A stretch of 64,000 nucleotides of DNA from Elsinoe ampelina (taxonomy: Eukaryota). The notes under the pieces are model-generated. The model was not told the origin of the DNA and ran no database searches. It was given only the letters and a program-made list of their open reading frames with translations. The stretch spans positions 592,506-656,505 of the forward strand of contig ML992508.1 of the NCBI GenBank assembly GCA_010093995.1, given 5' to 3'. Positions 2,304-26,728 of the stretch are shown one piece after another. Position numbers and translations under genes: made by a program. Every line of letters starts with the position of its first letter. Position 1 is the first letter of the stretch.

Positions 2304-2445
2304 TATTATAATAGAAGACTAGTATAGCTTCTCTAGTACTAAAGAACTAGTACTAATAAGTCAGCGCACGCATAGTAGATAAATCGGTTATTATAGCTCT
2401 CTGAATGAAATACACGTCTCTCGATCCGATTTGCCAGTTACAATA
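2304..2445 (+). repeat. Copia 3' LTR (142 bp)
   Basis: Follows the PPT. Termini TATTATAA...TTACAATA correspond to RIPped TGTTGTAA...TTACAACA inverted ends. Confidence 0.7.
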
Positions 2446-2852
2446 GGTTCCCGGTCCGACGTAGAAGCTTATCATGCAGTCGTCCTAAATATACAGAAGT
2501 TCTAAGCATATCAATATGGTCATGCACACAAACTGGACACCTCCAAGTGATGATCACACTGTCATAAGAGTCGTCGTTATCACGAGAGAGATGTAGTCGC
2601 AAATCGCCCGCCATGCCGGTGCATAAAGTACGTGTGCACTGACTTCCAACTCAATTTTTGTGTTACATCACCTCCCAGTGTCAATGTTCGAGTCGCCTCG
2701 ATCAGAGGCATGTTGAAGTCAACGTAAAAAGGACATCTATACCATAAGCTGTCGCAGATGAAAACGTATCTTACTTGCTTTTCCTTGCCCCATCCATTTC
2801 CCGCCAGCGCTAATACACCACAAAAAGCATATCCATCCGCACACTCATTCCC

Positions 2853-5800
2853 TCAGAGCGGCTTGCCACCGATGAAGTCACTCCATCTCCTGACTTCTGA
2901 TGGGATACCCTCCTGCTTGGGCAGCTTGGCCCTCATACACTCTGCGAAGAGCACAGCGGTCTGTACGACATTAGTAAGGTCCGTCGATGGAGAGGAGAAT
3001 AAAGACTTACCTTGGGCTCCATGAACAATGGGACACCGAAATCCACAGCATTCCTCCTCATCACATAATCCTCATCGAGCAGGCTGCTCGCCCGGGTCTT
3101 CGCCAGGTTGAATACACCCCTAATGTCGTACTTCTGGAACACCTCTCTGAGAGCTCTCTTGTCATCCTTCGGGAACTCGATGACTTCAACCTTGACCGAG
3201 CCGTCCTTGCTGTTCTTCTCCAAGAAGTTCTTGACATCGTCATTGGCGGCGTAGAGCTTGTAATTGAGTGGTGCAACGAAGTCGACGATTTGGGCCAAGT
3301 AAGGCTGAGTGACATCGCCGCCGAAGAGGAGGCCTTCGCCAGGGAGAGGAAGGCGGAAGTTCATGGCGCTCTGTGCGGCGGTCCAGTAGGCTTCAATCAG
3401 ATCCTTACCGAAGCAAGCCATCTCGCCGGTTGAGGACATTTCCACTCCGAGGAAAGGATCCGCACCAGCTAGTCTGGTCCATGAGAACTGAGGTACCTTG
3501 ACTGCCACATAGTCGCGCTTCTCCTTCATCAGATCGACGGGTTCTGGCACGTTGTGGTTGGTGAGTGCTGATGTTGCTGCTTGAATAAAATTTGTTCCCA
3601 GAACTTTGCTTACGAATGGGAACGAGCGCGAGGCACGCAAATTGCACTCGATGACCTTAAGGGCGTCCGTTGACGGCTCGTGGATGATCTGCATGTTGAA
3701 GGGACCTGTGATGGACCAAGCTTCGGCGACCTTGTCAGCGATCTCCTTGACACGGTCCTGAATTTCCTTCGATGTGTTGACCGGCGGTAGGACGAGAGTG
3801 GCATCACCAGAGTGCACACCGGCATTCTCGACGTGCTCACTGACAGCGTGGACCAGGACTTTACCAGATGAAGCGACAGCATCAACGTCGATCTCACGAG
3901 CGCCTTGGATGAATTGAGTGATCACAACAGGATGATCCGGGCTGACGTTACTGGCGGCTGTGAGCTTCTCTTGCAGCTCGCCCTCGCTCCAGATGACGGT
4001 CATGGCAGCGCCAGAGAGAACATAACTTGGGCGAACCAGGACGGGATAGCCAACGGAGTCGGCAAAGGACTTTGCGTCTTCATAGGAAGTGAGCTCTTTC
4101 CACTTTGGTTGGTCGACACCGATGGAGTCCAGGATCGAAGAGAACTTGTGCCTGTCTTCAGCCTTGTCAATGTCCTTGGGATCAGTACCGAGCACACGCG
4201 CGCCGCCTGATTCCTGCAGCTTCAAGGCGATGTTCTGTGGAAGTTGACCGCCGGCGGAGACAACGACACCAGATGCGGATTCGAGCTCGTAAATGTCCAT
4301 GACCCGCTCGTATGATAGCTCGTCGAAGTAGAGCTTGTCAGCAACATCAAAGTCGGTACTGTAGGTCTCAGGGTTGTAGTTGATCATGACGGTCTTCTTG
4401 CCTTGAGCTCTGAGAGATTGCGCTACGTTTACAGCACACCAGTCGAACTCCACGGAGCTACCGATACGGTAGACACCAGAGCCGAGGACCATGGTTCCGT
4501 GATCGTCAAAAGTGACATCGTGAGAGGTAGCATTGTATGTCGTGTAGCAGTAGTTGGTGTCTGCCGGGAATTCGCCGGCCAATGTATCGATCCTCTTGAC
4601 AAATGGTGTGATACCGAAGCTCTTGCGGCGAGCACGAACTTCATCCTCAGTAGAATTGACTGCCACAGCGATTTGCTTATCGGAGAATCCAAGCTTCTTT
4701 GCGTGTTGCATGGTTTCCTTCTTGATACCGTAAAGACTTCCAATATCCTCAAGATCATGAGTGCAATCAACGATATTTTGGATCTTGTGCAAAAACCATT
4801 TGTCAATCTTGGAGAGCTCATGAACTTTATCAACGGAATAGCCTTCGTGGAGCATAGCCTGGCCGACAGCCAGCCATCGACGGTCTGTTGGGTGTCGGAG
4901 TACATCATCAAGATCTTCGAAGTGATCGCCCTGCAGGCCATGGTACTTGGGGTCGACCTGTCTGATAGCTTTTTGTAGCGATTCCTCGAATGTCCTTCCG
5001 ATTGCCATTACTTCACCAACGGACTTCATTGCGCTACCGATATCTCGTTTGACATGCTGGAATTTGCTCAAATCCCATCGCGGTATCTTGGTAACAATGT
5101 AATCCAGAGCCGGCTCGAAGTTGGCAGTTGTGGTTTTCGTGACAGCATTAGGTAGTTCCGGGAGGGTGTGTCCGAGTCCGATTTTCGCGGCAGTGTAGGC
5201 CAGTGGGTATCCGGTGGCCTTTGATGCTAGAGCAGATGAACGAGAAAGACGAGCGTTAACTTCAATGACCCTGTAGTCAAGACCGTCGGCCTGGAGCGCA
5301 TATTGGACATTGCACTCGCCGACCACGCCGAGATGTCTGACAATCTTGATCGCGGCGGATCTGAGCATGTGATACTCCTCGTCGCTGAATGTTTGACTTG
5401 GCGAGACTACTATACTGTCTCCAGTATGCACCCCGAGGGGATCGAAGTTTTCCATGTTGCAGACAGTGATACAGTTGTTCTCTGCATCCCTGACAACCTC
5501 ATACTCTGCTTCCTTCCAGCCTTTCAAGCTCTTCTCGATTAGGACCTGGGGACTTGTGGACAGTGACCTTGCCGCCAAATCTCGAAGCTCCTGTGGGTTA
5601 TTGGCGAACCCTGACCCGAGGCCTCCTAGAGCGTATGCGGCTCGCGCAATGATAGGGTATCCGATCTCTTCAGCGGCGTCAAGAGCAGACTGGACTGAGT
5701 CCACGGCTGTAGACTGGGCGACTGGAATATCGATCTCGTTGAGGGCTCTCACAAAGAGGTCGCGGTCCTCACTTGTCTCCAGCGTCTTGATCGGGGTTCC

Positions 5801-6586: not shown

Positions 6587-7089
6587 CAGAGCTTGGACGT
6601 TTGGGGTTGTGGTATAGATAAGGAAGCTCTCCGGTTGGTCGGCCGCGGAGGTGATGCCAATCCTCCAAGCAATTGGAAGACCGCAGTGAGGAATTGGTTT
6701 GAAGTACAGCGTCCTCGAGGCTTGGACAAGCTGCAAATGAGAGACTCCCACAGTTCTTCCCAGAAGTATCTGCTACCCTGCAGACTTTCGCAGGAATGGA
6801 ATTTTTTTGGCTGCATGTGATTTCAATCGCCGACATCGGCCCCTCACGGTGAGACTCTATGGTAGCCGATTTGCGCCTTTCCGCCAAACGCCAATTTTTC
6901 TCCAGCCTCTACCAGCCTCGTAGGAAGAGCAAAAATACCCTTTACTACAACTCTACTAATTTATTAAATTAGTAAGTCAGTAATAGCTTCATTTATGCGG
7001 CGCACCTTACGGATTAATTTCATCTAATTTTTATAATCTCTACTATACTAAGTCGTGTGTAAAACTCTCTCTAAACTCTCTCTATCCTA

Positions 7090-9435
7090 TATAGTTATAC
7101 CTTACTAAGTAACTAATATTACTCCCTAGAGGGAGAGAATTACTTAGCGTATTAAAGAGCAGTAAGCAACTATAGACAACGTACTTAACGAACTATATAA
7201 GCACAATATAGAGATTATAAAGTAAATACTTAAGTAATAATTATAGTAATAGAGTATCTTCTACTAGCTAAAGACTAAGGATAGTAACGCTCTAAAGGAG
7301 CAGATTATATAGTAGTTTAAGCTAATAAGGTAGAGTAATAAGAAGATACTTAGAACACTAGTTAATAACGGCTTTAAGGTTAATCTAAAAGGTCTATTCT
7401 ACCTTTAAAAGAGTATAGAGCTAGTAAGAAAGACTCCTTAAGAGTAGTATAAGTAGTTAAAGGATTAATAGCGCTAGGCCTTATAAATTAAGCTTAATAA
7501 AAGGCTTATCGAGTTACTTAGAAAGGGGTTACTCTATATATATATATATAGTAAGTATAATATTATATATATATATATAATTCTTATAAGTTAACTTACT
7601 ATATACTTGCTAACCTCTAATAGTAACGTTATAATAGAAGTCCTTTACGAACTTAACTCTTAGCTCTTTTAAAATTGCTATACGTATGTCTAGAATGTTT
7701 AATAATCTTATTAATAAGTTATAGAGCTAAATAGTTTATAGTTAATAGACGCTTACTATAAGTTTAAGACTTAGAGTCTCTAGATCTATACTAGTATCGA
7801 CTACTATTTACGAAGAATAGCCTAGATATACTATAGTATCTTAGTATACTTATAATGCTTAGTACTTTATTAATATCTTACCTATTTATCTAAGACTAGT
7901 ATACTACCTTAGTAACTATAGATAGATTATAGTAGAGAGACTATAGTAGCTACTAATATACACTATTATATCTCCTAGCAACTTTGTAGTGTACGAGATA
8001 ATAGAGACCCTTTATACTTCTATAACTACTTTAATTATAGCATAAGTAAGAGCAATTAGCGGATTAAGGTATACTAGTTATAGTAGGCCTACGTGCTTAA
8101 TACTTAGTATAATTAGTTTTAAGAGCTAAGTAATACTAGTAAATTTAATAGAGATCTACTACCTAATAGAGTTATATTTCTTATAGTCTATATGCCTATT
8201 ATATAGAGAGTTTACTAGTTCTTTACTAGCCTCTAGAACTACTATACTATCTGTAAGTAGCGTAAGTATAACTAGGTTATCTCTAGTAGTCTAGATAAGA
8301 TATATTAATATCTAGAGTAGTAGAGTAGTAAAGATAGAGATATCTAAGTACCTACTAGAATTATTAAGGAGTACTACTATATAGTTAGAGATTTTAGTTA
8401 GTATAAGTTAACTCGCTAGAAACTTACAAAACTTAGATCTATACTAACTTCTTAATAGATTCTAATAAGTATTTTCCTCTAGCTATACTTACGTAGTATA
8501 ATTATACCCTCGAGTAATTTAGCTTTATAGTCTTTAATAAGACAGATTTAATAGCTAATAGTATACTAGTCTACTAGCTAGTCTATTTAGCACTTTAAGA
8601 TACTATATAGTATTACTATTTAAGTATAGCTAAGCCTCTTCTTAGTAAGTTACTACGACTATTAGCTAACGATCTACTTAATTAACTATTAGCTAAGTTT
8701 ATTAAACTTCTCGACCGAGCTAGTATCTAATAATTATAATCCTAGTAAGTGTACTTACTAGAGCCTCGCTAGCTACTTAAATTTTTTTCTATAGCTAACT
8801 ATTAATAGTTTAAATTTGCTCTAAGCTATAATCCTTTTTAATAATCTCTTATAATTAGTTATAGTCTTAGAGGAAGAGATTAGATAGTGTAATTACTATC
8901 TAGTTAGCGACTTTACTTATAATTTAATATATAGAAGATATATTAGGTATAGTACTTATAAGATAAGAAACCTCTTCTTTACTAGTTCGACTATACTCTT
9001 CGTATATAAGAGTACTATATTCTTAATAGCTAGCTACCGAGATAAAGCTTACTAATTAAGTTATTAAGCTACTAAACCTCCTTAAGCCTTTTAAGCGCTA
9101 GTTACTCCTCGTGCTTAACTCTCTTAAGTTACTAAAACTAAGTACTAACGAGGCTTCTACTACCCCTCGGCGACTAATACTAGATTATAGAGACTATTAA
9201 CTTACTCTCTAGTAACGCTAGTTTAAGTACTAGTTTAAGTACTACCTTCTCTAGCTACGCTATAGTATAGTACTAAGCTTAAAGTATAAGTTTTATTTAG
9301 TAAAAGAGGTAGAAGTAGTATTATAACTTATTACCTTAGTAATACTACATTATATAAAGACTTCTTTAGAGATAACTAGTTCCTTACTATTAGTAAATTA
9401 ATCTTTACTAATTGACTTTTCTACGTTCTTATTAC
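7090..9435 (-). pseudogene. 3' part of multi-intron unknown gene(s) of the TIR element
   Basis: Long near-open minus-strand frames with TAA/TAG stops and GTAAG...CTAAC...TAG intron-like segments. The frame continues from 24341 across the Gypsy insertion. Confidence 0.5.
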
Positions 9436-9640
9436 TAATATAAGGCAGATACGAACTAGATTCAGTTAGGATATAGTTTAGATTAGTTACGTAATCTCGG
9501 TATCGCGGCCTAGGCTTCCGGCCGCTTTGCTCTTAATATTATATATGCTTTATATACTAGTTTTCTCTTTCTTCTTCTTCTAAGTCTCGATATCTTAATA
9601 AATAGATACAATTAACCTCTTATCTTACTAGTTATAATTA
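9436..9640 (+). repeat. Gypsy A LTR 1 (205 bp)
   Basis: TAATATAAGG...GTTATAATTA (RIPped TGA...TCA); aligns with 22960-23162 and 24131-24335. Confidence 0.9.
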
Positions 9641-10049
9641 CTATATTAAGACTTCGAAACGACTATAACTAAGCGATAGAGCTATTAAACTATCTAGTTA
9701 TTCTACTACTTATATAACTACTAATAACTACTACTTATAAAGAATTAAAGAATTAAAGAAGAAGCTATTATAACTATAGTTCCTACGTACACTATAATAG
9801 ATCCTTACTGCTACTATATAGGTTAATACTACGAACCTCGAAGATATAAGAAGAAGGTAATAAGTTAAGTTATAGATAACTCTTAAAGGAAGTAGGCTAC
9901 TAGCTAAAAATTTTTAATATTTCCTTTATTATATATTAATGTTTTATACCGTTTTATTCACGACTAACTACGCTAAACATAGCTTAATCTAACTATAGCA
10001 ACGAAGAGCGCTACTAAAGTAAGCTACTTTAACCTATCCCTAATAATAA

Positions 10050-13000
10050 TAATATCTCTATCTACTTTCTCTACTATAATCTTTTTACCCTCTCTAACGC
10101 TATACTCCTTAAGAAGCTATAGAAAGAGTATAGTATATAGGCACTAAGAGACGTATTTAACTATATTAAGTCCTTCTATAATAAGTAAACTACGTAGGTA
10201 AAAGGCACTTATATTAACGCTCTCTACTATTACTACGAGTTAGATACTACTTAGGCCTAGCTTAGTAACTTTTAATTCGAACTAGACGTATCTTAGTTCT
10301 ATACTAATAGCGTTACTACCTAAGCTACTTACTACCTAGATAAAATCTAAGAGCTTAAGGCTAAGGTAAACTAACTAAGAAACGAGATAGAGTATAGTAT
10401 ACTAGCTCTTTCTATACGTAGCTCTACCTTATTAGAAAAGATACTAGACTCTACTATCTTTAGCACAGGTACACTAGAGTAGTTTAAGGTCTATAAGTAC
10501 TAGATAAGGAATAAGATACGCGCTAATATAGATTGTTTCTCTATAAAGGATACCTAGTTTACCTATCTATACTTACGCCTCTCTAGAGAAGCCTATACCC
10601 TTATTATAGACTTAGCTAGTAATAACGTTATTAGCGTTAAAGAGGTTCTTACTCTCCTAGCCTAGCGCTTTAAGGATCTTAACTATAGAGCTACTATACG
10701 TACTTAGTTCGCTAACCTCTTCTAGCGTAATAGTATATTTAACTCCTTTATTAGTAAGTTTAATAAGTACGCTCTTTACGCTAAGATTGCTAAAGAGAAG
10801 TAGCTATACTAGATCTATTAAAAGATATTTAATAAGCTACGTAATACTCTAGTTAACTACGATACTAATAACCTTACTACCTTTATTACTAAGGCCTACG
10901 CTACTAACTATAATATCTAATAGAATAACCTTATTACTAAGCGCACTTAGGCTTTATATTCTATGCTAGCTATAAGCTACACCGCTACTATACCTACTTA
11001 CGTACCTTATTCTATCTCTACGCCTATAGCTCTACCTACCTTTTACTCTATTACTAGAGGTACTCTATAGCTTTTTCGTCTAGCTCTAGTACTTACCTAT
11101 TACGTATATAGTAAGCCTAGATATATCTCTACTAAGTATATAGCTAGCGCCTTAGAGAAGGCTACTTATACCGCTATACGCCTTGTACGTATTAGCGCTA
11201 TAAAGGAGATATAGTAGCTTTAGAATCGCTTAGCTAAATTAAGTAACTAGGTCGACACTAGTTTAGCTTATAAACTAGATCTAGTTTAGCCTTAGTTCGA
11301 CCCCGAAATAGACTATAAGTCTACTAGCTACTCTAGCTAGAGAAACGAGTAGCTAAAGGACAAGTCCTATTCTCTAGCGAAATAAGAGCAATTCGAGATA
11401 GATTTAAAGGAGATATACGTTTAATAAATAGTATTATTAGCTACTATATCCTCGCTATTATAACTTTTATTACTATTTACGACCCTTATAACTACTCTTA
11501 TACTATTACGCTCTAAGCCTTTATTAACACTAGTACGCTTATTAGCGCCGTAGTTAATTATAACATCCTTAATAAGCTAAAGAGCTTCGGCTGCCCTATA
11601 GCGTTAGCTAGCTCTATTTAGCTTTAGACTTATAATAGTATTCTAATAGAGTAAGTTACTTATAGTATTCCCCTTACTACTACTGTCTCTAGTAAGCTAA
11701 ATACTCTTACTACCTTCTATATTATAGATATTAGCTGTTTCGATATTATTCTTAGCCTCGGCTAGCTTAAGGCTAATAGGGCTACTATCGACTATAAGTA
11801 TAGCTAAGTCACGTACAAAGAAGAGTTTTTACTAGTCGTTATTAAGTAGGAGCTACTATAGCTAACTAAAGAGCTAGGATCTAGATCTAAGTCTAGCTCG
11901 GATCTAAGAATCTAACTCGGCAAAGCTACTATTCTAGTTTAGAACTAGTTTAGTTCTAGTTTAACTCGTAAACTAAGTTCTAGTTTAGCTACTAAGTTAG
12001 GACGAACTAAACTATATCGACTACTAGCTCTTAGGTTAAACTTTAAGCTAAATTAGAGAAAGTTTAAGCTAATCTCCTATAGTACTTAGTTAATATATAA
12101 GTTCTTCTATATACCTACCTACGTAAGTAATACTAAATAAGAAGAGCTAACTATTACCTTTATTAGCGCCGCCGCCTTTATATTAGTAGCTAAATACTAA
12201 AAGAATAAGGTGTTTATAATATTAGTAAAGAATATTAAGAATTACTACCGAATAGCCTCTAAACTAGAACTAGACCCTATAGTAGTTCTCCTAGAGAAGC
12301 TTTAAGAGTTTACTAACGTCTTCTCTAAAGAATAATCTAATATGCTTCCTTAGTATCGGCTAGATTTTAACAACTATATTATACTTAAAGATAGCGCTAA
12401 GCTACTATATATAGAGCCTTTACGCTACCTATTACTAGAAGAACTTAATATAGTAGAATAATTTATTTAAGAATATCTTAATAAAGGCTTTATTACACTA
12501 AGTTTCGCTAGCTATTTCTTACCTATTCTTTTTGTTTATAAGCTAGATAGAGAACTTCGTCTCTATATTAACTACTATAGCTTTAACGAGGTAACTAAGT
12601 AAGATATCTATTCTCTACTCCTTATTAAAGAAACACTTATACGTGTAAGTAAGGCTAAATAGTTTAGTAAGATTAATATCTATTAAGCCTTCTATTACCT
12701 CTATAACTCTATTAATAGTAAAGATCTTACTATATTCTCTATATACATAGGTAACTTTAAGTAGCTAGTAATACTATTCGGCCTTACTAATACCCCTATA
12801 GTCTAGTAGAGGTTTATAAATTACAACTTTGTTAATATACTAGAGCGCTTTATGTCGATCTACCTAGATAATATTCTTATCTATATAAATAGCTCTCGCC
12901 GAGAGTATACTAAGCATATTAAGCTAGTACTCTAGAGACTCTACGAATTAGGCCTAAATACTAACATTAAGAAGAGTAAGTTCTACCTAACGGAGGTAAA

Positions 13001-14865
13001 GTACCTTAGTATTATTATTAGCTAAGATAGAGTTAAGATAGATCCTAAGAAGGTAGAAGCTATATAAGTGTAGAAATAGCTAGCCCCTAGTAACACTACT
13101 TAGGTAAGAAGCTTTATTAGCTTCTATAGCTACTATTGTCGCTTTATTAAGGGATTTAGCACTATCGCTAAGCTACTAAACGATTTACTTAAGAAGGACA
13201 CTATACTATAGAACGATAAGTATACTACTATATTTAATTATATAAAGTATACTATTATAAGCGTACCTATCCTTACGTACTTTAATTACTTAAAATAGAT
13301 AGTCCTTAAGATAGACACCTCCGACACTACTACTACTAGAATTCTATTATAATATAATAAGTCTAACGTTCTCTAGCCTATTACCTTTTTTAGTAAATCT
13401 ATAAATAAAGCCGAACGTAACTACGCTATCTATAATAAGGAACTACTAGCTATTATCTAAGCCTTCGAGGAGTAGGCCCCTAAGCTTATAAGTACTTAAT
13501 CTAATAAGGCTATCTATATTCTTACTAACTACTAATTCTTAATATACTTTATAAAGACTTAGAAGCTATTACGCTACTAAGTGTACTAGGCTCTCTACCT
13601 TATATAGTTTAACTTTAAGATTATATATAGGCCTAGCGCTACTAACAGCAAGGCTAATACACTTATAAGGAGAAATAGAGATATACTATATTTAAAAGAA
13701 GACTCTAATCTACGCTAGACGCTACTACTATATAAGGTGCTAGATTAGCGCATTATTAACAAACTAAATCTAGGTCGTATCTAAACTAAATTACTAATCT
13801 AAGCTAAACTAAGATCTAGTTTAGTATCCCGTTTACGAACTAGTTTATTATTTAGTTTATTACCTATTTTACCTCCTATTTTACTACCTATATCGGCGCC
13901 TATTTCGGCTACTAAACTAGGTATCTACGTAGTACCTATCTTAGCTATAGAAGAGCCTTTACCCCTTTTCGACGAAGTAGCTAAAGCTAACCTATAAGAC
14001 TCCGATTTTAAGATAGTTTATAGCATTTACTATATAATAGAAGCCTTCCTAAAGAGGAAATAGCTACTATCGACCGATGTTATAATTAAAAAGAAAATAC
14101 TATAGGCTAATAGCCGACTAATCGTGCCTTTCTCTATAGCTACGAAGGTTATCTAAGAAGTTTATATATCGAAGAATTATATACATGTAGGAGCCACTAA
14201 GACAGCTACTATAATAAAGTCTACTTTCTATATCTCTAGATATAATAGTAATATTAAGAGGTTCGTCGCTAACTATTACAACTATAAGTATTTAAAGGCT
14301 TATTATAGTTTACTAGCTAGCCTCTTATCGCTATTGTCTATTCCGGAAAGGCCTTAGTAATATATTACTATAGACTTCGTTACTAGCCTACTCTTAGTAG
14401 ATAGCTATAATATAGTACTATATATTATTAATCGCTTATCTAAGGAATAACACTTAATTCCTTACTTCTCTAGAGATAAGAGAACCTTAGCGTTCGAGAC
14501 TACTAAGTTATTATTCTTCTACGTATAGAAACTATATAGCCTACTAAATAGTATTACCTCTAACTATAGTCTCTAGTTCGTTAGCGATGTATAGAGTAGG
14601 CTCTACTAGATTCTAAAAATTATAGCTAAGCTCTTAACTACTAGCTACCCTTAAACTAATAGCTAATTAGAGGTTATAAATCGTAAGTTTAAGTAGGTTA
14701 TTCGTTTATACGCTACACGTTTTAGTAATTAGACTCTTATTCTACTAGTAGTAGAGTTCTCTACTAATACTAGCCTATTAGAAAGTATAAAGCTATTACT
14801 ATTCGAGGTTACTAGGGAATACAAGTCTAGGCTAAGCTTCTAGCTCTCTTCCGACGTACTATTAA
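10050..14865 (+). pseudogene. Gypsy A gag-pol (5' part, up to the element B insertion)
   Basis: Zn knuckle (C)YV(C)(G)KP(GH) at ~11095; protease AFI(D)T(GA) at ~11517; RT IYLD(D)ILIY at ~12858; RNase H (ETDA)SD at ~13305; integrase ITS(DRGPQ)FVSD at ~14555. Start is approximate. Confidence 0.85.
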
Positions 14866-15038
14866 TATAGAGGAGACTCGGTATATAGCTCTAGCTAAGT
14901 CTATCACATAATAAACTCTCTCTAGCTACCTTCTATATAGCCTCTAGCTACTACGAATAAAGGCAGCTATTAGTTTATCTATCTATCTAGCTTATAGATA
15001 TCGGTAGTTCTATACGTTACTATATACTTACTCTTATA
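14866..15038 (+). repeat. Gypsy B 5' LTR
   Basis: TATAGAGGAGAC...CTCTTATA; matches 22147-22319. Confidence 0.92.
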
Positions 15039-15149
15039 TTTCTAATAGCTCCCTTTAGTTATAGCCTATAGAATTATCACTATAGACGATTAAATTATAT
15101 AAGATTATTCTAATTTAGAACCTATTTAGATAGATAGTAGCATTATCAA

Positions 15150-18100
15150 GAATGTCTTATATCCTTAGTCGAGAATGTTAGAAGAGCTAAGAGATAATAG
15201 AGATAGCTAAGAGAGGCATACTTCTACTAGTAGTAATAGTAGCCGTATAGCTATTATGTTAGAAGCAATAATAGCCTAGCTAGACAAAGTTAAAAATTTA
15301 GTACAGGACTATAATTAACTTTAATATGCTAGTGCTACTCTAGCTAAAGGCCGGATAACTACTAAAGTAGTTCCTTTAGTACCTCTAGGGCTAGTATTAA
15401 TAGGTCTACCTACTATAGGTTAATCTATAACGCTAATAACTAGGGGGCTATTAACTAAGGCTAAGGAGCTAGAGCTATATAAGGCTAAGAGCATCTCCGA
15501 GGCTTAGGCCTTTAGAAGGAGCCTCTAGATAGTCTTTAACTATAAACCGACGTAGTTCTCTAATCCGGAGAATTCGGACTAATAACGTATTACTTATATA
15601 GTAATATACCTTTCTCTATCTCTCTAGAAGACATAGGAACGCCTCTATACGCTAGACTTAATAAACTAGTATTATCTCTCGTATAAAGGGGACTTCTTAA
15701 GCTTCGTTAATAATTAAGTAAAAGACTCTATTAACTAAGAGATAAACGTAGTTCTATTCTATTATAGCTACTACTAGAAGAATAATAAGAGTGCCTAGAA
15801 GTTCTCTAATCGATTAGTATCTCTAGAAGAGATAATCGAGCTAAAGTATAATAGTAAGTACCTAGCTTAGTACTACCTAGCTAAACTATTACTCGATCTA
15901 TATAAGTAGATCCTATAGTTCTCTAATATACTAACTACTCGTATAAAGCTTATTATATAAGCCTTTACTCTCGAGAACCTTACTTAGAGTAAAGACTATA
16001 ACTAATAGAAGCGCTATAGAGCCTCCCTAGAGGCGTTCGGTAGCGATTATAGAAAGCGCTCTAAAGGCGAGAAAGGAGATAAGTAGAAGAGTAAGGGCAA
16101 GAGTAAGAGCTAGTAGAGAGGTACTTACTAGAGAGCTAGCTATTAGGCTAGCGGCAGAAACAATCCCTAAGGAAGTCCCGTAGGCAAGTGTTTCTACTAT
16201 TATAAGAAAGAGTACTATACTTACTCCTGTCCTAAGAAGCTAGATTCGAGCCGGAATAGTAGTAGTAAGGGAGGTAGCAATATTAGAAATGTAAAGGCGG
16301 AGGGTAGTACGCTCGTACCTACGTAATACGTTATAGAATGCTAGAGGAGCTTACCCTAGAGCTATAAGGCTCCTATAGTACTTCTAGTATAGGCTTACTC
16401 GAGCCTAGTTCTTAGCCTCGATAGTAAGGTCGAGGTTAAGGTGCTCTTAGATAACGTAGCTAATATTAACGTTATTAACCTAGCATTTATACTCTAGTAT
16501 AACTTATAAAAGGCAGACGTAGAGTACCCTTAGGTAAGAAGCTTCTAGAGAAAGAAGGCTTACTATTATAGCGCCTATAAAGTAGACTTATACCTTATAG
16601 ACAATACTAGAGTAACACGAGAGTCGAAAGGCATTTTCTATACGTTAGAAACTAGCTCTCCTATTATTCTTAGTAGGCTATAGCGTTATAACTAAAGTGT
16701 CGTAATAGATAGCTATACTAACTAGTAGAGATATAGCTATAACATTGCTAGCGTTAGAGTAGTATAAGCGAAGGAGTTTATAAACCTTCTACTCGCTAGA
16801 AACTAAGGATTTACTCTAGTAGTGTCTAATACGACACTAGATACAATAGTTCGGAAGGTAGCTAGATTCTCTATAGAGGAACTACCTAGCGGAGCTATAA
16901 ACCTACTACTCTACGTAAAAGAGTTTAGCGATGTATTTATTATTAACTCTATACATATATATACTATAGACGGTGTAGTATACTCTATCGATCTAATAGA
17001 AGAGAAATAACCTTCCTTCTAACCTCTTTATAACCTCTTAGTAAAGAAACTCGTAGTGCTCTATAAGTACCTTAATAACGCACTAGCTAAAGAATAAATC
17101 TATAGGTTAGAGAGTCTAGCTAGCGTACTAATCCTTTTCGTTCTAAAGAAAGATAGTAGTCTACGCCTATACGTTAACTACTATAGCTTAAACACTATTA
17201 CTATTAAGAATCGACACTCTTTACTCTTAATTAGTAAGACGCTTAATAGGCTAGGTAGAGTAGTAGTATACTCTAAGCTTAATCTTAAGGATATATACTA
17301 CCGTATTAGAATTAAGGCTAGAGACAAGTAGAAAACTACTTTCTAAACTCGCTATAGCTACTTTAAGTACATAGTTATACCTTTTAGCTTAACTAACACC
17401 CCGGCTATATTCTAGGCCTATATTAACTAAGTACTTACGGGGCTAGTTAATAACTTCTATATAGTATATTTAGACAATATTCTAATCTATAGCAACTCTA
17501 TAGAGAAGTATAAGAAGTACCTAGAGAAGGTACTAGAGAGGTTAAGGCAGTTTATATTATACGTAAACCTAAAGAAGTATAACTTCTTTAAAAAGAAAGT
17601 TAAGTTCTTAAGCTTTATAGTAACTACTAAGAGAGTTATAATAAACCTCTAGAGAGTTTCTATAATTACGGATTAGCCGACCCCTAGGAGCTACTACGAG
17701 GTTTAGTAGTTTCTTAGCTTTACTAACTTCTATCGAAGGTTTATCTAGAACGATTTAAAGATCGTAGAGCTCTTAATAGCGTTATTTAAGAGGTTATAGA
17801 AAGAAAAGCAATCGGCACTCTAGAAGTAGACTACCCTAGAATAAAAGGTATTTAAGACTATCTAGAAGGTCTTTACTAAGGCGCTAGTACTTAGGCACTA
17901 TAAGCCGTCTAGGCCAATTAAGATTAAGACTAACGCGTCTAAGTAGACACTCGAAGCAATTATCTCCTAGTTAGTTCTAGTTAGGGATACTAGTAAATAG
18001 CACCCTATTACTTTCTAGTCTTATAAGCTACTCTCTATAGAATAGAACTACGAGACCTATAATTAGGAGCTTCTCTCTATTATAGAGGCATTTAAGCAGT

Positions 18101-20210
18101 AGAGACACTACTATAAGGGTGCTCTAGACCTAGTCTAGGTAATTTTTAATTATAATAACCTAAGGTACTTTATAACGACTAAGTATTTAAATAGTTACTA
18201 GGCCTAGTAGGCTATATATCTATAGGTATTTAACTTTATAATTAAGTACTACGCGAGCTCTAAGAACCTAGCGGATACTCCCTTACATTGTCCGGACCTA
18301 ATAGTAGATAAGATAGGCCTTATAAATAGCCTACCGACTTTATAGTTAAAGCTAGAGGCTAGCTAGCTAGCTATAGGCAGTATAGTACGGCGGATCTATA
18401 TATCCTTACTAGAACGCTTAAAGGGCACTACTTTAGAAGAAGATATAGACGTAACTATCCGCGTAGTATATACTAGTTATTTAGACGCGAACGAGGACTA
18501 GAGAGACTCTAAGGAGTTTCTAGAAAATAAGTTTAAATACAAAGAAGATACTAAAGACGCTAGGGGTAGTTCCCTAGAAGCTAACTAGCCTAACTAGCCG
18601 CAAAGTAAGTAGTTAAAGCGTAGGGAGGTAAGGCTATACTAATTAGGTACAATGCTAAGATTAATGCCTCGTATCGCTACTATAGTAGTAATAGAAGAGG
18701 AAAATCTATAGAGAGAGAGTTCTAGCGACTAGCTTCTCGAAGCTATTTATAGTCTATAGAAGTAGGATTTAATAGCGTAGCGGCGTATAAATCTCTCTAT
18801 TTAAAGAGCTAATAGAGGCTCCTTAGTATAGTATCGAAAGAGCGAACTTCTATATAAGGATAATACTATATATATACTAGAAGATGTAGCACTCTATATA
18901 GAGTTACTATAGTAGCACTATAATAAGTTTAATAGTAGTTACTTCGCTTATAACAAAACATATAAACTCTTAGCTAGAAAGTACTACTAGCCTAGTATAT
19001 ATTACAACGTCGATAACTATATTAAGACGTGCTATGTTTACTAAACTATAAAGACTTAGACCTATACCCCTTATAGTAAGCTTATAAATTTGCTAATGCC
19101 TAAGGCGCTATAGAAAGAGTTAACAATAGACTTTATTATAGATATGCCTTTAAGTAAGCTAAATAGCGTTATATACGACGTAGTACTTATAGTAGTAGAT
19201 TAACTTACTAAGATAGTAAAGTATATTCTGTGCTAGAAGACAATTACGGCCTAGTAGCTTACTAAGCTGTTTTTCGATCGAATTATACTAGAGTATAGTA
19301 TTCTAGAAGAAGTAGTATTAGACTATAGAACAGTCTTTACTATAGCCTATTAGTAAACGTTTACCTACAAATTACAATTCGTAAGGCGTTTATTAACTAC
19401 TTTCTACCCTTAAATAGATAGATAAATAGAATAATAAAACAGATTCCTAATCTAGTATCTACGCTATTATAGAGTATAGGACTAATCGGATTAGTCTCGC
19501 TAGTTAAAGATAGTAGCTTACGTAGTAAACATCTCCTAGAATAAGACATTATAAATGTCCCTATTCGAGATATATACTAGTAAGAATACTAAAGGAGATC
19601 CGAATAGGGACTAAGAGTATTTCCTTTAGAGAGAAGTACTAGCTATATAAGATTATATAGCCGCCCTAGTCTCGATAAGGTAGGGCTTATAGAAGCGCTA
19701 GAAGTAAGCTTAGGAGTAGTAGAAGGACTTCTATAATAAGTAGCGTAAGCTAATGTCCTTTAATATAGGAGATAGAGTTCTTCTATCTACTAAGAACCTA
19801 AGGCTAAAGGTAGTAAAACATAAGCTAGCGCCGAAGTGCTTTAGACTATTTAAGGTGCTAGATTCCGTAGAAGCCTAAGCGTACTAGTTATAGTTACTAG
19901 AGGAGTCCCGTATCTACGACGTATTCTATATCTCCTTACTTAAGCTATATAACTCTCGTAGGAGTACTAAGGTAAATTCGGGGCTAGTTAAGGTAGACAA
20001 TAGTATAGAATATAAGGTAGAGCGAATCTTAGAGCATAGTTAGCAGAAAGAAGACACGTTCCTAAAGGTGCTCTAGAAAGGCTATACTCTATTAGAGGTA
20101 ACCTAGGAACTAGAAGAGGTATTAGAGAATACCTCGGAGGTAGTAACTAAGTACTAGGTAAACGTCGGCTAGAAGACTAATAGAAGAGTTATAAAGAGAG
20201 TATAGAGGTA
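15150..20210 (+). pseudogene. Gypsy B gag-pol with chromodomain, RIP-inactivated
   Basis: CF(HCH)KK..(H)..SCP knuckle at ~16189 in frame with the protease; RT VYLD(D)ILIY at ~17463; IKTNAS (ETDAS) RNase H at ~17923; integrase; EY(E)VERILEH chromodomain at ~20008. Boundaries are approximate. Confidence 0.88.
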
Positions 20211-20244
20211 AACATAGGTAGTATAGACTATATATTCTAAGAAT

Positions 20245-21625
20245 CTATCTACTATAACTCCCTAACTCTACGCTTAGAGCACTAACTACCTAGTCTTACT
20301 TAGTGCTACTCTACTTAGTAGCGTAGAGAGTATTCTTATATATATTCTAGTAGGTAGTAACGACGGAGTTCTCTACCTTAGACCTTAGCTATAGGTTAGT
20401 CTTATAAGCTACTAGATTCTCTATAGTCTTATTACTAAAGTTAGGCATCTCGTAGGTACCGATAGTAAAGGCATAGAGATTATCTATAGAGAGAATAGTA
20501 ACAAGAAAGTGCCTAATAGCGTAGTAGTAGTTAGCTACGGCCTAACAAGCGTTACTACCCTTAGGGAGCTTAAGAGACTTAGCTAGTAGGTCGATGTAAC
20601 GCTAACGAGCCTTATTACTACTAAAGAACGTAAGAGAGCAAGTCTTAAGAGTAAAGTAGTTAACTACGGAACTAGTATAGAAGCTAACTAGATTACTAGT
20701 AGAAGCTTTATAAGCTTAGGCACTTATAGGCAGATTGCGCCTAATAGTGCTACTAGGAGATATAAAGCCCTTATTATTACTATTAGTATCGGCGTTAGCT
20801 ATATTAGTATTATAGTTTAAGTAGGAAGAGTAGTAGATAGAGGTAGCTAGCTTAGTAGCCTAGGTGCCCTTACTAGAGGATATAGTAGGCTTCTTAGCTA
20901 GGGTAGCGAGTTTCTTAGCCTTAGACTTCTTAGGAGTAGTAGGCTTAATAGGCTTCTTAGGCTCTAGAGACCTAGTAGCCTCCTTAGTCTTACGCTTCTT
21001 CCTATAGATATCCGCGCGAAAGAGAGTTAAAGCTACTAGAAGATCCTTACTAGAGTAGTGCTATAGACAAGTTAGTAGTAAAGAACACTCTCGATAAGGT
21101 TAACACCTATAGTGTAGAGAATAGTAGTAATATTCTCGATAGTAAGGCATAGGCTACGTATTTTAGTAACCTTAGCGCGCTCTAAGTTCTTCCCTTAGAG
21201 AGAGGTAATATTAGTACTAGCGTAAGTGTCCTATATACCCTTAGTCTACTTATATTCCTTAATAAGGTTTATAGCCTCGATATACTTATTAGTGTAGTAG
21301 TTGTACTTCTTAACTAATATAAGGTTAATAGAGTTCTAGGAGACGTAGTTATAGTACTAGATAGTGCCGTAGGCGTTATTAACGCGGTCTAGTAGAATAG
21401 CGTTATTAATGTTATAGTAAGCGACCTTTATATACTTATAGCAAGTATAAGTCTTAGTAACCCCTAGGTTGTAGTTATAGAGAGCATCTAGCGAATATTA
21501 GTAGCGCCTCTAGAGAACTACTAGTAGAGTACTAGAGACTTACTAATTATATCCCTAACGTAGTTACTATAGTAGTAGTAAGGGGTAATACGTAGTAGTA
21601 GCGCCTAAGAAGCTCTAGGAGCTAT
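20245..21625 (-). pseudogene. Antisense two-intron accessory gene of Gypsy B with a Lys/Pro/Ala-rich basic tract
   Basis: Introns 21488-21543 (GTAAGT...TACTAAT...TAG) and 21061-21110 (RIPped GTAGGT...TACTAAC...TAG) join three near-open frames of ~420 codons. KKRKTKEATRSLEPKKPIKPTTPKKSKAKKLATLAKKPT at 20884-21000. Confidence 0.7.
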
Positions 21626-22146
21626 AGTACTTACTAAGGTATTCGAGAAGCTATATATAGAAAGGACTAACGTATTAAAGCGTAAGAGATGCCTATATAG
21701 GCGCGTTCTATTTACTATATAATACAATAAACATAGAAGGTAAATTTATATACGTTGTTATCTCCTAGGAGGTAGTAGTATTATCTAAGAATTAACGTTA
21801 TAAAGTATCGATATATAATACTTACTTAGGACCTCCAAGGGAGTTCTATATAGTAAATAAACTAATCCTATACGTTTGCTAAAGCGCTAGTTGTTTCTTA
21901 AAGCAATAAATGCTTTAGCTTATAATATAAAGAATAGCTATTAGAGGAGAGCTATATTTGCCTTAATATATTAGTGTCGTTAGTAAATAAAGGTATAATA
22001 GATATAAAGAGTAAATAAAGAAGCTAAGTTCTTCCCCTATATAAGGAATACTAACCTACCCTTATAGGAGAGGCCTATAATAGCGATTAGAGGCCTACGA
22101 AGGATATAGTTTAATTAAGGGTAATTAAATATAAAGAGGAGATAAT

Positions 22147-22319
22147 TATAAAGGAGACTTAGTATATAGCTCCGGCTAAGTCTATTACGTAACGAACTCT
22201 CTTTAGCTACCTTCTATACGGCCTTTAGCTACTACGAACAAAGGCAGCTATTAGTTTATTTATCTATCTAGCTTATAGATATTAGTAGTTCTATATATTA
22301 CTATATACCTACTCTTATA
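22147..22319 (+). repeat. Gypsy B 3' LTR
   Basis: Direct repeat of 14866-15038. Confidence 0.92.
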
Positions 22320-22915
22320 ATTAACAAGAGCTAAGCTAAATAAGGCCGACATTTACGCTCTTACTAAGCAACTAGAAGAAGCGCTAGCTATTACTAAGGC
22401 TAACCTTGCTATTACCTAATTATAAATAGTAGAGTAAGCTAATAGACACTACTAGCTAATAGAGTTCGAGGTAGGCGATTTAGTTTAGCTATTAACAAAG
22501 AACCTCTAGTTACTAGGCAATCTAAAGCTACTACTAAAGTATGTTAGTTCTTATAAGATTCTTAAAAAATAGTTACTATTAGTATATAGGCTCGATCTAC
22601 TAGCTACTCTATAAAGGATTTACTCTATGTTCTATACTAACCTCCTTACTAAGCACCTAAATAACTCCCTACTAGGCTAAGTCTTTAGGGAACTACCTCT
22701 AGTAGAGGTCGATAGTAAGAAAGAGTATAAGGTAGATAATGTAATTAATATATATATACTATAAGGAAAGCTAGTTACTTATATAAGCTAGAAGAGCTAT
22801 CTAGAGAATCTTACGTAGTGGCTAATTAATAACCTTAAAGGAGTAGCCGATGTGCTATATAACTATCTAGACTCTTATATAGATAAGCTAAAGCCGAAAT
22901 AGATTAATAAATAAT
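22320..22915 (+). pseudogene. Gypsy A integrase C-terminus and chromodomain (resumes after B)
   Basis: GPY/F-type region, then EY(E)VDNVI(D) chromodomain at ~22723; PPT before 22960. Confidence 0.85.
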
Positions 22916-22959
22916 ATATAATAGTATTTAAGAGTAAATACGCTTAGGAGAAGAGATAG

Positions 22960-23162
22960 TAATATAAGATAGATACAAACTAGATTTAGTTAGGATCTAG
23001 TTTAGATTAGTTACGTGATCTTAGTATTATAGCCTAGGCTTCTAGCCGCTTCGCTCTTAATATTACGCATGCTTTGTATATTAGTTTTCTTCTTCTTCTT
23101 CTAAGTCTTAATATCTTAACGAATAGACGTAATTAACTCTCTTATCTTACTAGTCGTAATTA
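22960..23162 (+). repeat. Gypsy A LTR 2 (internal)
   Basis: Aligns with LTR1 and LTR3; preceded by GGAGAAGAGATAG. Confidence 0.9.
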
Positions 23163-24130
23163 TATATAGTCTACTAGATAGTATTACCTCGAATTATAGC
23201 TCTTAGTTCGTTAGTAACGTATAGAAAAGATTCTACTAAATTCTAAAGATTACTACTAAACTGTCTACTATAGAGTATCTATAAATAGATAGCTAATTAG
23301 AGGTTATAAATTATAAGTTTAAGTAAGTTATTTATTTATACACTATACACTTTAGTAATTAGACACTTGCTCTACTAGTTATAGAATTCTCTACTAATAT
23401 TAACCTATTAGAGAGCACTAAGCTATTACTATTCGAGGTTACTAGAGGATATAAGCTAAGGCTAAGCTTCTAGCTCCCTTCTAACGCACCGTTAATAAGA
23501 GCTAAGCTAAATAAGGTCGACATCCGCGCACTTACTAAGCAACTAGAAGAGGCACTAGCTATTACTAAGGCTAACCTTACTATTGCCTAGTTACGGATAG
23601 TAGAATAAGCTAATAAGCACTACTAGCTAATAGAGTTCGAGGTAAGTAATTTAGTTTAGCTATTAACAAAGAACCTCCGGCTATAGAGCAATCTAAAGCT
23701 ACTACTAAAGTATATTAGTCTCTATAAGATTCTTAAGAAACAATTACTACTAGTATATAAGCTTAATCTACTAGCTACGCTATAAAGGATCTATCTAGTA
23801 TTCTACGCTAACCTCCTTACTAAGTACCTAAATAACTCTCTACTAGGCTAAGTCTTTAATAAACTACCTCTAGTAGAAGTTAATAGTAAAGAGAAATATA
23901 AGGTAGATAACATAATTAATATATATATACTATAAGGGAAGCTAGTTACTTACGTAAGCTAGAAAGGCTATCTAGAGAATCTTACCTAGTAGCTAATTAA
24001 CAATCTTAAAGGAGTAGCTAATATACTATATAACTATCTAGACTCTTATATAGATAAGCTAAGGCTAAGATAGATTAATAGATAATATATAATAGCGTTT
24101 AAGAGTAAACGCATTTAAGAGAAGAGGTAG
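23163..24130 (+). pseudogene. Second copy of the Gypsy A integrase tail and chromodomain
   Basis: Colinear with 14533-14865 plus 22325-22959, and lacks the B insertion. Confidence 0.88.
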
Positions 24131-24335
24131 TAATATAAGGTAGATACAAACTAGATTTAGTTAAGATATAGTTTAGATTAGTTATATAATTTTAGTATTA
24201 TAGCCTAGGCTTCTAGCTACTTCGCTCTTAATATTACACGTGCTTTATATACTAGTTTTCTCTTTCTTCTTCTTCTAAGTCTTAATATTTTAATAAATAG
24301 ACATAATTAACCTCTTATCTTACTAGTCGTAATTA
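24131..24335 (+). repeat. Gypsy A LTR 3 (205 bp)
   Basis: Aligns with LTR1; followed by TSD ATTAC. Confidence 0.9.
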
Positions 24336-24340
24336 ATTAC

Positions 24341-25170
24341 TTAATCTTAAGTAGCTAACCTTATCTAGCTAAGTAGCTACTATAGAGGTTATATAAGGCA
24401 CTATCTTTATAATAGCTTTATAAAGGGTATAAATATGTTAAAATTACTATCTTAAGCTAGTCTCTAAGAGAGTAGCCTTATTAATATACTATCTCTTTTT
24501 AACTCTACTAGTAGTTAGTTTTATTAAGTCTATTATCCGAAGCTAGCTATCGAGTACTTCGACTATAAGTTAAGTAATAAAGAGAATAAGAATACTATAG
24601 CTATACTATAACTACTATACTAGCGGCTAAATAAGTATATAAAGACTCTAGTAAGTATATTATAAGGCGCCTTATAACTAGTAAATATAAGAACTCTTAC
24701 TATTATATAAGCACTAGTAGAATCTAGTACGATTTTTGCGCCTAGTAAGTTAACTCGCTAGAGACTTATAATACTCTAAAATTTAGCTAACTTTTAGATA
24801 GGTTTAAGCTAATATAATTTACTTATATAAGCTAATATATATAGCACGCTAAACGCCTTCTCTTCTACCTTAAGGAGTTCTATTAAGAAGGAGCTATTAA
24901 CTATAGCTAATAATAAGCTATTATAGTAGTAGGCTATTAAGTAACTAGAGGAGCTCTCTAAGTTTATTAACTTAATAAGTTCTTTACTAAGCTCTTCTTT
25001 ACTAAGGTACTTCTTCTTACTACTATTAAGTTCTATTTTCTTTTCTAATTTAATAGCCTTATCGGCTACTAGTATAGCGCTATTAGTATATAACTCCTCT
25101 ACTAAGTCTATTTTTAGATAACTCCTTCTATACTACTAGTCTATACTACTATTTAATAATAGTAATATAG
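24341..25170 (-). pseudogene. 5' part of the unknown multi-intron gene of the TIR element
   Basis: Near-open frame (...DLVEELYTNSAILVADKAIKLEKKIE...), intron near 24563-24606, and ...VSYLRLSN|KNVEKSISKD reading across the removed Gypsy A. Start is approximate. Confidence 0.5.
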
Positions 25171-25407
25171 ATACTAGAGAAGCTAGAGATAAGGTTCCTA
25201 ATAGCGATAACTAAGTTTATTTAAGTATTAAGTAAAAGGTTAGTACTTATATAAAGAAGAAAAGCAATTTATAGATAATAAGGTTAGAGTAGAAGGTTAA
25301 GTATATATATAAGGCTAGTAGATAAGAGAAGTAATTAAAGGTTCCTACTAGCGCTATAGTATTATTATTAGTCTTTATTAGGTATTATATCGTATAGTTA
25401 TTAGTTA

Positions 25408-26188
25408 TTATAGCTCCTTACTTCTCTTATGTCTCTTCTCTACTCTTTCTATCTCTTCTCTCTTAGCCTCCTTCTTCTCCCTTACTAATACTAATACCTC
25501 TAGCGCTGCTAAATGTCTCTCTAGTAAGCTATTTAACTCTTTAGCTATAGCTAGTACCTCCTATAGTAAACTAACTTAACCTTTAAGCTTATTAATATAT
25601 ATAGTAAAATCTCTCGAGGAGGCTTATAAGAGAGCTATAAGTAGACTTATAATAGCATTATAGCTATACTTACGCTAACGAACGTAGTAACTATAGCGCT
25701 TGCCTTTAGTAGCTATCTTAAATATATAACACTTATAAAGTAGTATATTATTCTTCTTCTTTCTTAAGTATTACTTATATACTATACTAGCTAGTATACC
25801 TTCCTTTATCTTTATAATTCGTCTAGTATTAGACACTAGGTTATAGGCCTTAAGGGCACCTTTAATCTTCTTCTTATCGCTAGAGAGCTTAGTATTATAA
25901 AGGGTAATATAATAGGCCTTCTATTTATTATTACTGATGTACTAAAAGTTGTTTATATTTATAGTAGTTAGCTAGTAGAACTTAGTATTAAACCTGTAAG
26001 TTGTTAGTAAGTATACTTATAAGGTAGTTAGGAGTAACTTATACTTAGCTATACTACTTATCTACCTTATTAAGGTGTTACTACTATAGCTCCTTATAGG
26101 TTTAATAAGCCTCCTTCTCCTCTCTACGCCTCTTTCGACTACTAGTATTATAAAGGCTACGCCCTATAGAGCTAGCTACTTAGGATAT
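25408..26188 (-). pseudogene. Small spliced gene of the TIR element with a putative six-Cys zinc cluster, NLS-like motif and coiled coil
   Basis: RKRRREEKE near the N-terminus; intron ~25994-26054 (TACTAAC...CAG); 25660-25779 de-RIPs to C-x2-C-x12-C-x11-C-x2-C-x7-C; E/K/R-rich helical C-terminus. Confidence 0.55.
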
Positions 26189-26728
26189 AGTAGTAGTAGT
26201 AGTAGTAATAGTAGTAAATAATTAAAATTAGTAACTAAACTAATAATAGAGAGGAGTATAGAGAAGGCTAAGGAGAGAAAGAGAAAGCAAGTATACTTAT
26301 AAGATATAGAGAATTAACTTGTTTATATACTTATATAAGGTATACTAGCGTTACTAGGGGGCGCGTAGTTACTATACTATAATTACTACCTTCTATATTA
26401 GAATAATAATTAAATTTAACTATGCTATTATAGCTCTAAATAGTAACACCATTAGGAAAAGAATTATTATAATTAGATAATAATTAACTACGCTAGAGGT
26501 AGTTGAATTTTAGTAACTCCAAGGGGCTAAGCGGAATTTGCGATTTTGGCCGTTTAGCGGATTGTCGCAAATCGGTTGCCGTCGACTCCCGCGGGATGAG
26601 CGTTCCTTCGACCAACCGATTCACCACCACCTTGGGCCTGCTGGGCAACTTCACGGCTGCACCTTGGCATCGACAGGCCTCATATGAGGGTGTGTGAGTC
26701 AAGCTCTGGGTATCATTCCAACAGTATC

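Follow-up and report, generated by a model that had tools for sequence, protein, structure and literature searches.

In the interval separating pol from the 3′ long terminal repeat (LTR) of element B, which by its sequence is a Ty3/Gypsy chromovirus degraded by repeat-induced point mutation (RIP), Elsinoe ampelina probably carries the remains of a spliced accessory gene encoded on the strand opposite to gag-pol. Element B lies in a stretch of 64,000 nucleotides (nt) from GenBank assembly GCA_010093995.1 (contig ML992508.1, positions 592,506 to 656,505, forward strand), here called the window, and all coordinates count from its first letter. The gene occupies 20248-21745, between the end of pol (20155-20210) and the start of the 3′ LTR (22147). 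The interval is best explained, with a probability of roughly 0.7, by an antisense accessory gene with spliced exons that forms an integral part of the element B family. Its candidate parts are listed below.

20248..21060, minus strand: exon 3, with a basic K/P/T tract, an Asn-rich stretch and a helical C-terminal part (frame 21060-20248, 9 stops in 271 codons; periodicity, codon model)
21061..21110, minus strand: intron 2, 50 nt, ATAGGT...TACTAAC...TAG (splice signals)
21111..21487, minus strand: exon 2, Tyr-rich with 18 Tyr in 125 codons (frame 21485-21111, 5 stops in 125 codons; periodicity, codon model)
21488..21543, minus strand: intron 1, 56 nt, GTAAGT...ACTAAT...TAG (splice signals)
21544..21745, minus strand: exon 1, tentative (frame 21745-21545, 1 stop in 67 codons), lacking an ATG and a period-3 signal
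21746..22132, minus strand: spacer lacking a coding signal (chi-squared 2.2, p 0.9, computed over 21746-22146)

The element is embedded in an AT-rich block of 19.5 kb (~7000-26500, GC 0.27-0.38), flanked on both sides by gene-like DNA with a GC content of 0.50-0.65. Repeat copies within the block differ almost exclusively by transitions, which reads as the signature of ascomycete RIP. Against this background, the period-3 composition of the two larger candidate exons stands out, with chi-squared values of 98.9 (p 4e-19) over 20248-21060 and 56.3 (p 2.5e-10) over 21111-21487. Per kilobase the signal amounts to 122 in exon 3 and 149 in exon 2, five to seven times that of pol (21.5), compared with 5.5 in the adjoining spacer; over 21746-22146 it is gone, and likewise in the flanking RIPped DNA. 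The frames are also unusually open, with 3.3, 4.0 and 1.5 stops per 100 codons in exons 3, 2 and 1, respectively, compared with 7.6 in the pol frame (91 stops in ~1200 codons) and 10-12 in other frames. Over 271 codons, the median stop count of non-coding frames in the block is 27-34, and stretches of that length with at most nine stops occur only twice in its six frames, once in the reverse transcriptase (RT) part of pol and once on the minus strand at 20248-21210.

The three minus frames are joined by introns of 56 and 50 nt, neither divisible by three, and each intron brings the adjoining frames exactly into register. The donor of intron 2, ATAGGT, has its A preceded by T, and its derivation from GTAGGT by RIP is chemically plausible. 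A scan of the minus strand of the block recovered five distinct donors matching GTRAGT with a branch motif and YAG 45-90 nt downstream, or 20 distinct donors when the donor was relaxed to RTRNGT; because such candidates are rare in the block, chance placement of both introns at the frame switches is unlikely. The three near-open frames and the two introns had been proposed in an earlier note made from the letters alone, and register, stop density and splice signals agree with that proposal. Its antisense two-intron gene inside the element is therefore supported, while its start at 21625 is not, as that codon is ATA and exon 1 is non-periodic. The 3′ end of the gene is blurred by five in-frame stops within 20349-20247, the true stop lying somewhere therein.

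Periodicity alone leaves the strand unassigned, so the strand call rests on a codon model, stop counts and splice signals. A codon log-odds model was trained on the pol gene of element B and scored in windows on both strands, and it chose the proposed minus frames at 20150-20599, 20750-21199 and 21050-21499 with scores of 12-26, like those of pol itself. The minus strand scored +26.4 versus -24.6 for the plus strand at 20750-21049, and +23.2 versus -1.1 at 21200-21499. Minus-strand codon usage is dominated by AAG, ACT, GCT and similar codons; AAG, the commonest of them with 28 occurrences in exon 3, is the preferred Lys codon in fungi. The plus-strand reading of the region is Leu/Ser/Arg-rich and of low complexity. 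The minus strand is favoured because the codon model, codon usage, the composition of the plus-strand reading and the splice geometry all point to it.

The region is shared by a repeat family. Copies were assessed with contig pieces from one DNA sample, which bears the same organism label and may be the source of the window, using the whole 7.6-kb element at a likeness of at least 80%. In total, 1113 contig pieces matched element B, with a summed depth of 1607-2398 over 20134-22165 and of 1392-4645 over gag-pol. Differences among the copies were transitions at 1482 of the 1503 differing places. Among the 40 of these 1503 places that were listed, each was covered by 2-9 contigs and only six lay inside the candidate exons. 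The indels in the candidate exons, among 12 of 23 listed, comprised two pairs whose members compensate each other and an in-frame skip of 78 nt, the latter removing 26 codons from the Asn-rich stretch of exon 3 in one contig (20760 to 20839). Since several independently RIPped copies all contain the spacer region, capture by this copy alone, which the earlier note had named as a case that would overturn its model, is ruled out, and the antisense region, with a depth like that of pol, belongs as an integral part to a RIPped multicopy family. Three sequencing runs guessed to be RNA yielded 0 contigs on the element and were uninformative on expression.

The spacer between pol and the 3′ LTR would thus once have housed a real accessory gene opposite to gag-pol, made up of three or more exons, with two short spliceosomal introns. 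As the introns are antisense to the genomic RNA of the element, they would not be spliced from it and every new copy would inherit them. Antisense transcription may have started from the gene's own promoter in the non-coding ~400 nt that adjoin the 3′ LTR (21746-22132), the putative promoter and 5′ leader, and would have run toward pol, reaching its end 40-150 nt away from the stop of pol. The window copy itself is dead: RIP presumably gave rise to its 15 in-frame stops and to the loss of any ATG, and probably damaged the second donor. Transcription, splicing and function of the ancestral gene are predictions from its sequence.

Several observations weigh against this reading. The gene model was arrived at post hoc, the exon 1 frame has no ATG anywhere upstream, and exon 1 shows no periodicity (chi-squared 3.1, p 0.79). 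The codon model prefers the plus strand in the window 20450-20749 (+7.1 versus -0.8 for minus), and the mirror plus frame is fairly open, with 14 stops versus 9 over exon 3 and equality over exon 2. Searches with the product found no meaningful relative: phmmer with exon 3 (X at stops) gave 0 matches at E ≤ 0.001 in 1.84 billion representatives, Pfam with the three minus frames of 20099-22200 gave only a chance-level DUF4943 at E ≤ 0.1 (E 0.07), a sequence search of the PDB gave one chance-level match (L11, E 0.035), and tblastn with all three exons, run on 79 metagenome loci whose pol genes are related, gave a single match with an E-value of 5. The nearest pol relatives in that set (L001, L002 and L020) have neither a long spacer nor an antisense open reading frame (ORF). 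The orphan status of the gene is partly due to RIP, which erodes similarity, and the earlier note had likewise recognised no family.

Three other explanations of the interval were weighed. Chance openness together with chance splice-like motifs might mimic a gene in TA-rich RIPped DNA, where RIP makes GTAAGT (1.0 per kb per strand), CTAAY (5.8) and TAG (many) frequent; several other 125-codon stretches with at most five stops do occur in the block, and the post hoc construction of the model belongs on the same side. Given the periodicity of the two larger exons, absent from both the LTR-proximal spacer and the flanking RIPped DNA, and the openness of exon 3, matched over 271 codons in the six frames only by the RT, this explanation is close to refuted. 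Alternatively, the plus strand could be the coding one, with a third ORF in sense orientation or a stretch extending the C-terminus of pol, mirrored by the minus frames. The codon-aligned mirror of exon 3 is indeed pol's own plus frame, with as few as 3 stops per 125 codons at 20278-21027, the window 20450-20749 scores in its favour, and over exon 2 the strands are equal (5 stops per 100 codons on either). Such a reading would have to cross eight stops at 20155-20275 between pol and the region, contains the larger number of stops over exon 3, loses most windows of the codon model, translates into Leu/Ser/Arg-rich low-complexity sequence, and leaves both the prevalence of AAG among the minus-strand codons and the coincidence of the frame switches with minus-strand splice signals to accident, all of which makes it highly improbable.

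The remaining explanation accepts an antisense gene and denies it any service to the element: the family ancestor would have acquired an intron-bearing host gene fragment as DNA, in reversed orientation, and kept it as a passenger pseudogene. Introns in a retroelement do imply either antisense orientation or acquisition as DNA, and the lack of the region in L001, L002 and L020 suggests a lineage-specific gain. A host paralogue far less mutated than the element's copy would then be expected, yet the phmmer search returned no match; moreover, the gene fills the spacer where, and in the orientation in which, related elements have their antisense genes, with introns similar in size, and the gene appears to be a complete unit rather than a fragment. 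A passenger origin is accordingly regarded as unlikely, and an accessory gene belonging to the element B family is preferred.

The product of the antisense gene offers few clues to its role. AlphaFold2 modelling of exon 3 as a single sequence gave a mean predicted local distance difference test (pLDDT) score of 42, and Rfam returned 0 matches over 20100-22400. A RIP-aware Smith-Waterman comparison with 281 ORFs downstream of pol in the related loci was discarded as noise, its best scores coming from both strands alike. The basic tract spans ~40 residues (42 codons), is rich in Lys, Pro, Thr and Ala, and includes one TPKK motif. On the coding strand TpA is derivable from CpA or TpG, and hence any AAG preceded by T could originally have read GAG; in the tract 8 of the 14 Lys codons are of this kind, and in exon 3 24 of the 30, each possibly Glu before RIP. 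With 8 of its 14 Lys possibly Glu, the tract may have been of mixed charge rather than basic, and its RIP-robust part is only the KKR cluster at its start. In the same way, 15 of the 21 Asn codons in exon 3 were possibly Asp, and each Tyr of the product may have been Cys or His. These substitutions had been suggested in the earlier note; they are chemically sound and serve as a lead only. The likening of the tract to a histone H1 tail fared worse. Linker histone H1 tails share with it a Lys/Pro/Thr/Ala-rich stretch, here with a single TPKK, whereas the window gene has no winged-helix globular domain by Pfam and no long, repeated S/TPKK-type tail. A chromatin-binding or anti-silencing function, also put forward there, found no backing from Pfam or phmmer. 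The KKR cluster, and analogy with the antisense genes of other LTR elements, make it conceivable, though doubtful, that the product bound nucleic acids in the nucleus and regulated the expression of its own element.

The host element itself has the following features.

14861..14865, unstranded: 5′ copy of the target-site duplication, ATTAA (5 bp)
14866..15038, plus strand: 5′ LTR, 173 bp, with TATA...TATA ends (LTR-LTR comparison)
15100..20210, plus strand: gag-pol in one frame (that of base 15001), RIP-degraded (Pfam, closest proteins, stop cluster)
17143-17619, plus strand: RVT_1 of pol (Pfam E 2.5e-19)
17839-18219, plus strand: RNase H of pol, two models (Pfam; RT_RNaseH_2 E 2e-16)
18901-19053, plus strand: integrase zinc-binding domain, Integrase_H2C2 (Pfam E 7.9e-6)
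19768-19950, plus strand: SH3_Tf2-1 of pol (Pfam E 9.1e-11)
20011-20154, plus strand: chromodomain-like stretch (Pfam Chromo, sub-threshold)
22133..22142, plus strand: polypurine tract AAAGAGGAGA, ending 4 nt before the 3′ LTR (read from the sequence)
22147..22319, plus strand: 3′ LTR, 173 bp (LTR-LTR comparison)
22320..22324, unstranded: 3′ copy of the target-site duplication, ATTAA

The two LTRs are identical at 153 of 173 positions and differ by 20 transitions, with 0 transversions and 0 gaps, and their TATA...TATA ends were probably TG..CA before RIP. The domain order of RT, RNase H and integrase in a single frame is canonical. The Chromo match lies at the expected place with an E-value of 0.085 and 13.2 bits, versus a cut-off of 25.1, and the best database relatives of pol (541 bits) are full Gypsy polyproteins, most of them with PF00385 Chromo. 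The pol frame is closed by the eight stops clustered at 20155-20275. The distance from there to the 3′ LTR is 1.94-1.99 kb, unusual for a chromovirus, and confirms the ~1.9 kb that the earlier note had measured from the chromodomain end within an element bounded by target-site duplications. The end of gag at 16171-16326 (plus strand) reads ...CFYYYKKEYYTYSCPKK..., which looks like a CCHC zinc knuckle with Cys and His turned to Tyr by RIP, although Pfam gave no match on this stretch. If so, it would be a local example of the Cys/His-to-Tyr erosion proposed for the antisense gene.

Element B is inserted into a second RIPped Gypsy element, in the region of its integrase. This outer element occupies 9641-14860 and 22325-24335 and has the following recognisable domains.

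12627-13020: RT of the outer Gypsy element
13215-13560: RNase H of the outer Gypsy element
22474-22656 and again 23666-23828: SH3_Tf2-1 of the outer Gypsy element, which resumes after element B

Beyond the insertion the outer element contains a 1171-bp tandem duplication (22316-23486 and 23487-24335), the halves of which are 98.6% identical when purines and pyrimidines are merged, and an uninterrupted paralogue of the insertion site is found at ~23487-23500. Downstream of the outer pol remnant, two further minus frames (24566-25384 and 25411-26163) are nearly open, their lowest counts being 2 and 5 stops in 125 codons. One of them is charged and coiled-coil-like (...REKKEAKREEIERVEKRHKRSKE), and period-3 is weak in both; these frames could be an antisense gene of the outer Gypsy element's own.

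Spliced antisense genes are also found in chromoviruses related to element B. The motif C-x2-C-x6-C-x5-14-C-x2-C-x6-8-C was searched in 1.16 million six-frame residues from the 79 metagenome loci, resulting in 13 matches, all 13 on the strand opposite to pol. For ten of them the distance from the end of pol is 350-710 nt, and these ten come from 9 of the 34 loci that have at least 600 nt beyond a complete pol. These matches belong to two families with 331 and 399 database proteins, which are without a Pfam family and essentially unnamed, the Pfam model Zn_clus reaching only sub-threshold scores on them. The first family occurs on the minus strand 350-620 nt after pol in seven loci (L022, L028, L029, L031, L035, L040 and L049), with further sites in L032, L068 and a second one in L035. 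Its members have 165-220 amino acids, with an invariant C-x2-C-x6-C-x8/9-C-x2-C-x6-C followed by a long helix, and the one named protein among the 331 relatives is a hypothetical protein of Sporormia fimetaria. An AlphaFold2 model built from 56 sequences (pLDDT 84.3) consists of a small Cys domain and an 80-residue helix. Its best Foldseek matches in the PDB are nearly all Zn2Cys6 DNA-binding domains, including those of Pho7, PPR1, HAP1, GAL4, Leu3 and PUT3, at weak E-values of 0.34-8.

The second type, found in L054, L057, L071 (3650-4723, minus strand) and L048 (4625-5766), has two exons, a charged coiled-coil exon being followed by the six-Cys domain and by Lys-rich, Asp-rich and helical blocks; all of its 399 database relatives are metagenomic and unnamed. 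The antisense introns of L071 and L048 are canonical and in register, measure 57 and 50 nt, and feature GTAAGT or GTGAGT, CTAAC and YAG, the 50-nt intron of L048 falling inside the six-Cys domain. As antisense spliced genes are common in the related loci, the gene model in the window is biologically ordinary for these elements.

The window gene resembles the six-Cys genes in its strand opposite to pol, its place after pol and the size of its introns (56 and 50 nt, compared with 57 in L071 and 50 in L048), and its Tyr-rich, basic, Asn-rich and helical order parallels the Cys-rich, basic, acidic and helical order of the L071 type. It differs from them in having no measurable sequence similarity. 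The strict Cys motif, with Cys readable as Tyr after RIP, has no match in the window gene, and a plain hidden Markov model search with the six-Cys families found nothing in it. RIP-aware profile scores of the window gene were 10.5-17.2 bits, and 60 control frames reached maxima of 16.4-17.2. Two apparent likenesses were compared with shuffles. A relaxed pattern, Y-x2-Y-x8-Y-x9-Y-x2-Y-x6-Y, spans the exon 1/2 junction with a first loop of x8 versus x6 in the six-Cys family, and was also found in 1993 of 20000 shuffles; it is no more than a lead. A likeness by eye between exon 3 (...GF...C..FF) and the C-terminal block of the L071 type was equalled or exceeded by 173-290 of 300 shuffles and was rejected. 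The pol tree places element B, a long branch, beside L001, L002 and L020 with a local support of 98, and the six-Cys families sit in other pol clades. The resemblance is one of layout and domain order, not of demonstrable ancestry.

It would be a long shot to read the Tyr-rich N-terminus of the window gene as a RIP-scrambled Zn2Cys6-type DNA-binding domain (TGY to TAY) and the gene itself as a diverged member of the six-Cys set. Were this true, fungal chromoviruses would encode their own GAL4-like DNA-binding dimer, presumably controlling LTR transcription, and the window gene would join a broad group of spliced antisense genes, as yet undescribed, whose more than 700 proteins lack a Pfam family. 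A literature search linking Zn2Cys6 with antisense genes of chromovirus retrotransposons found none among the matches listed.

A fungal gene of comparable placement, brtn of the element Boty, is reportedly the subject of a 2011 paper (Virology 417:248). For Boty, Grande, RIRE2 and Retand, passages of four papers record genes of antisense orientation in the interval from pol to the 3′ LTR (PMC8365987, PMC7264820, PMC4227169, PMC11963269). The gag-pol of Boty contains a chromodomain, according to a passage of PMC4227169, and its extra gene brtn, opposite in strand to gag-pol, is located after pol and before the 3′ LTR, as stated in parts of PMC7264820 and PMC8365987; brtn is recorded from Botrytis and Sclerotinia. 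Boty and element B are both fungal LTR elements with an extra antisense gene, in element B a probable one, in the same interval, whereas the hosts of Boty are Leotiomycetes and brtn can be likened to the window gene by layout only. No protein named BRTN was among the matches listed for the pol of element B and for the six-Cys families.

In plants, genes of the aORF-3R class are described, in passages of the papers cited above, for maize Grande, rice RIRE2 and Silene Retand (the last with a TRP28 domain), and are said there to occur in the majority of a family's copies, with a proposed role as nuclear or DNA-binding regulators. The searched passages of two papers covering plant antisense ORFs contain the word "intron" 0 times in each. 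The window region shares the interval and orientation of this class and likewise occurs across copies, while the hosts of the class are plants and Retand belongs to a non-chromovirus lineage. Position, opposite-strand coding potential and presence across copies, three features of the class, were found for the window region, and no Pfam match to the TRP28 domain (PF04195) was obtained in the window frames at E ≤ 0.1. Deltaretroviruses offer an analogy of layout only: the HBZ gene of human T-cell leukaemia virus type 1, which is spliced and has a nuclear product, likewise lies opposite to gag-pol near the 3′ LTR and has a regulatory role, in a virus group and host unrelated to element B. Retroviral antisense genes are also mentioned in a passage of PMC11963269.

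Accessory genes of LTR retrotransposons provide a rare view of how these elements handle their hosts. Backward-facing accessory genes are already known in related elements, so the window gene is a modest addition; brtn was the only fungal antisense case found in the literature searched, to which the window gene adds a second, intron-bearing and seemingly unrelated one. It also illustrates that an antisense gene can stay recognisable after heavy RIP through periodicity and splice geometry alone. As a dead orphan, its worth is that of a pointer. Intact spliced genes of the same layout, with a Zn2Cys6-like domain and a coiled coil, are widespread in related elements, and these genes outside the window are the more interesting lead, one on self-encoded transcriptional control in fungal retrotransposons.

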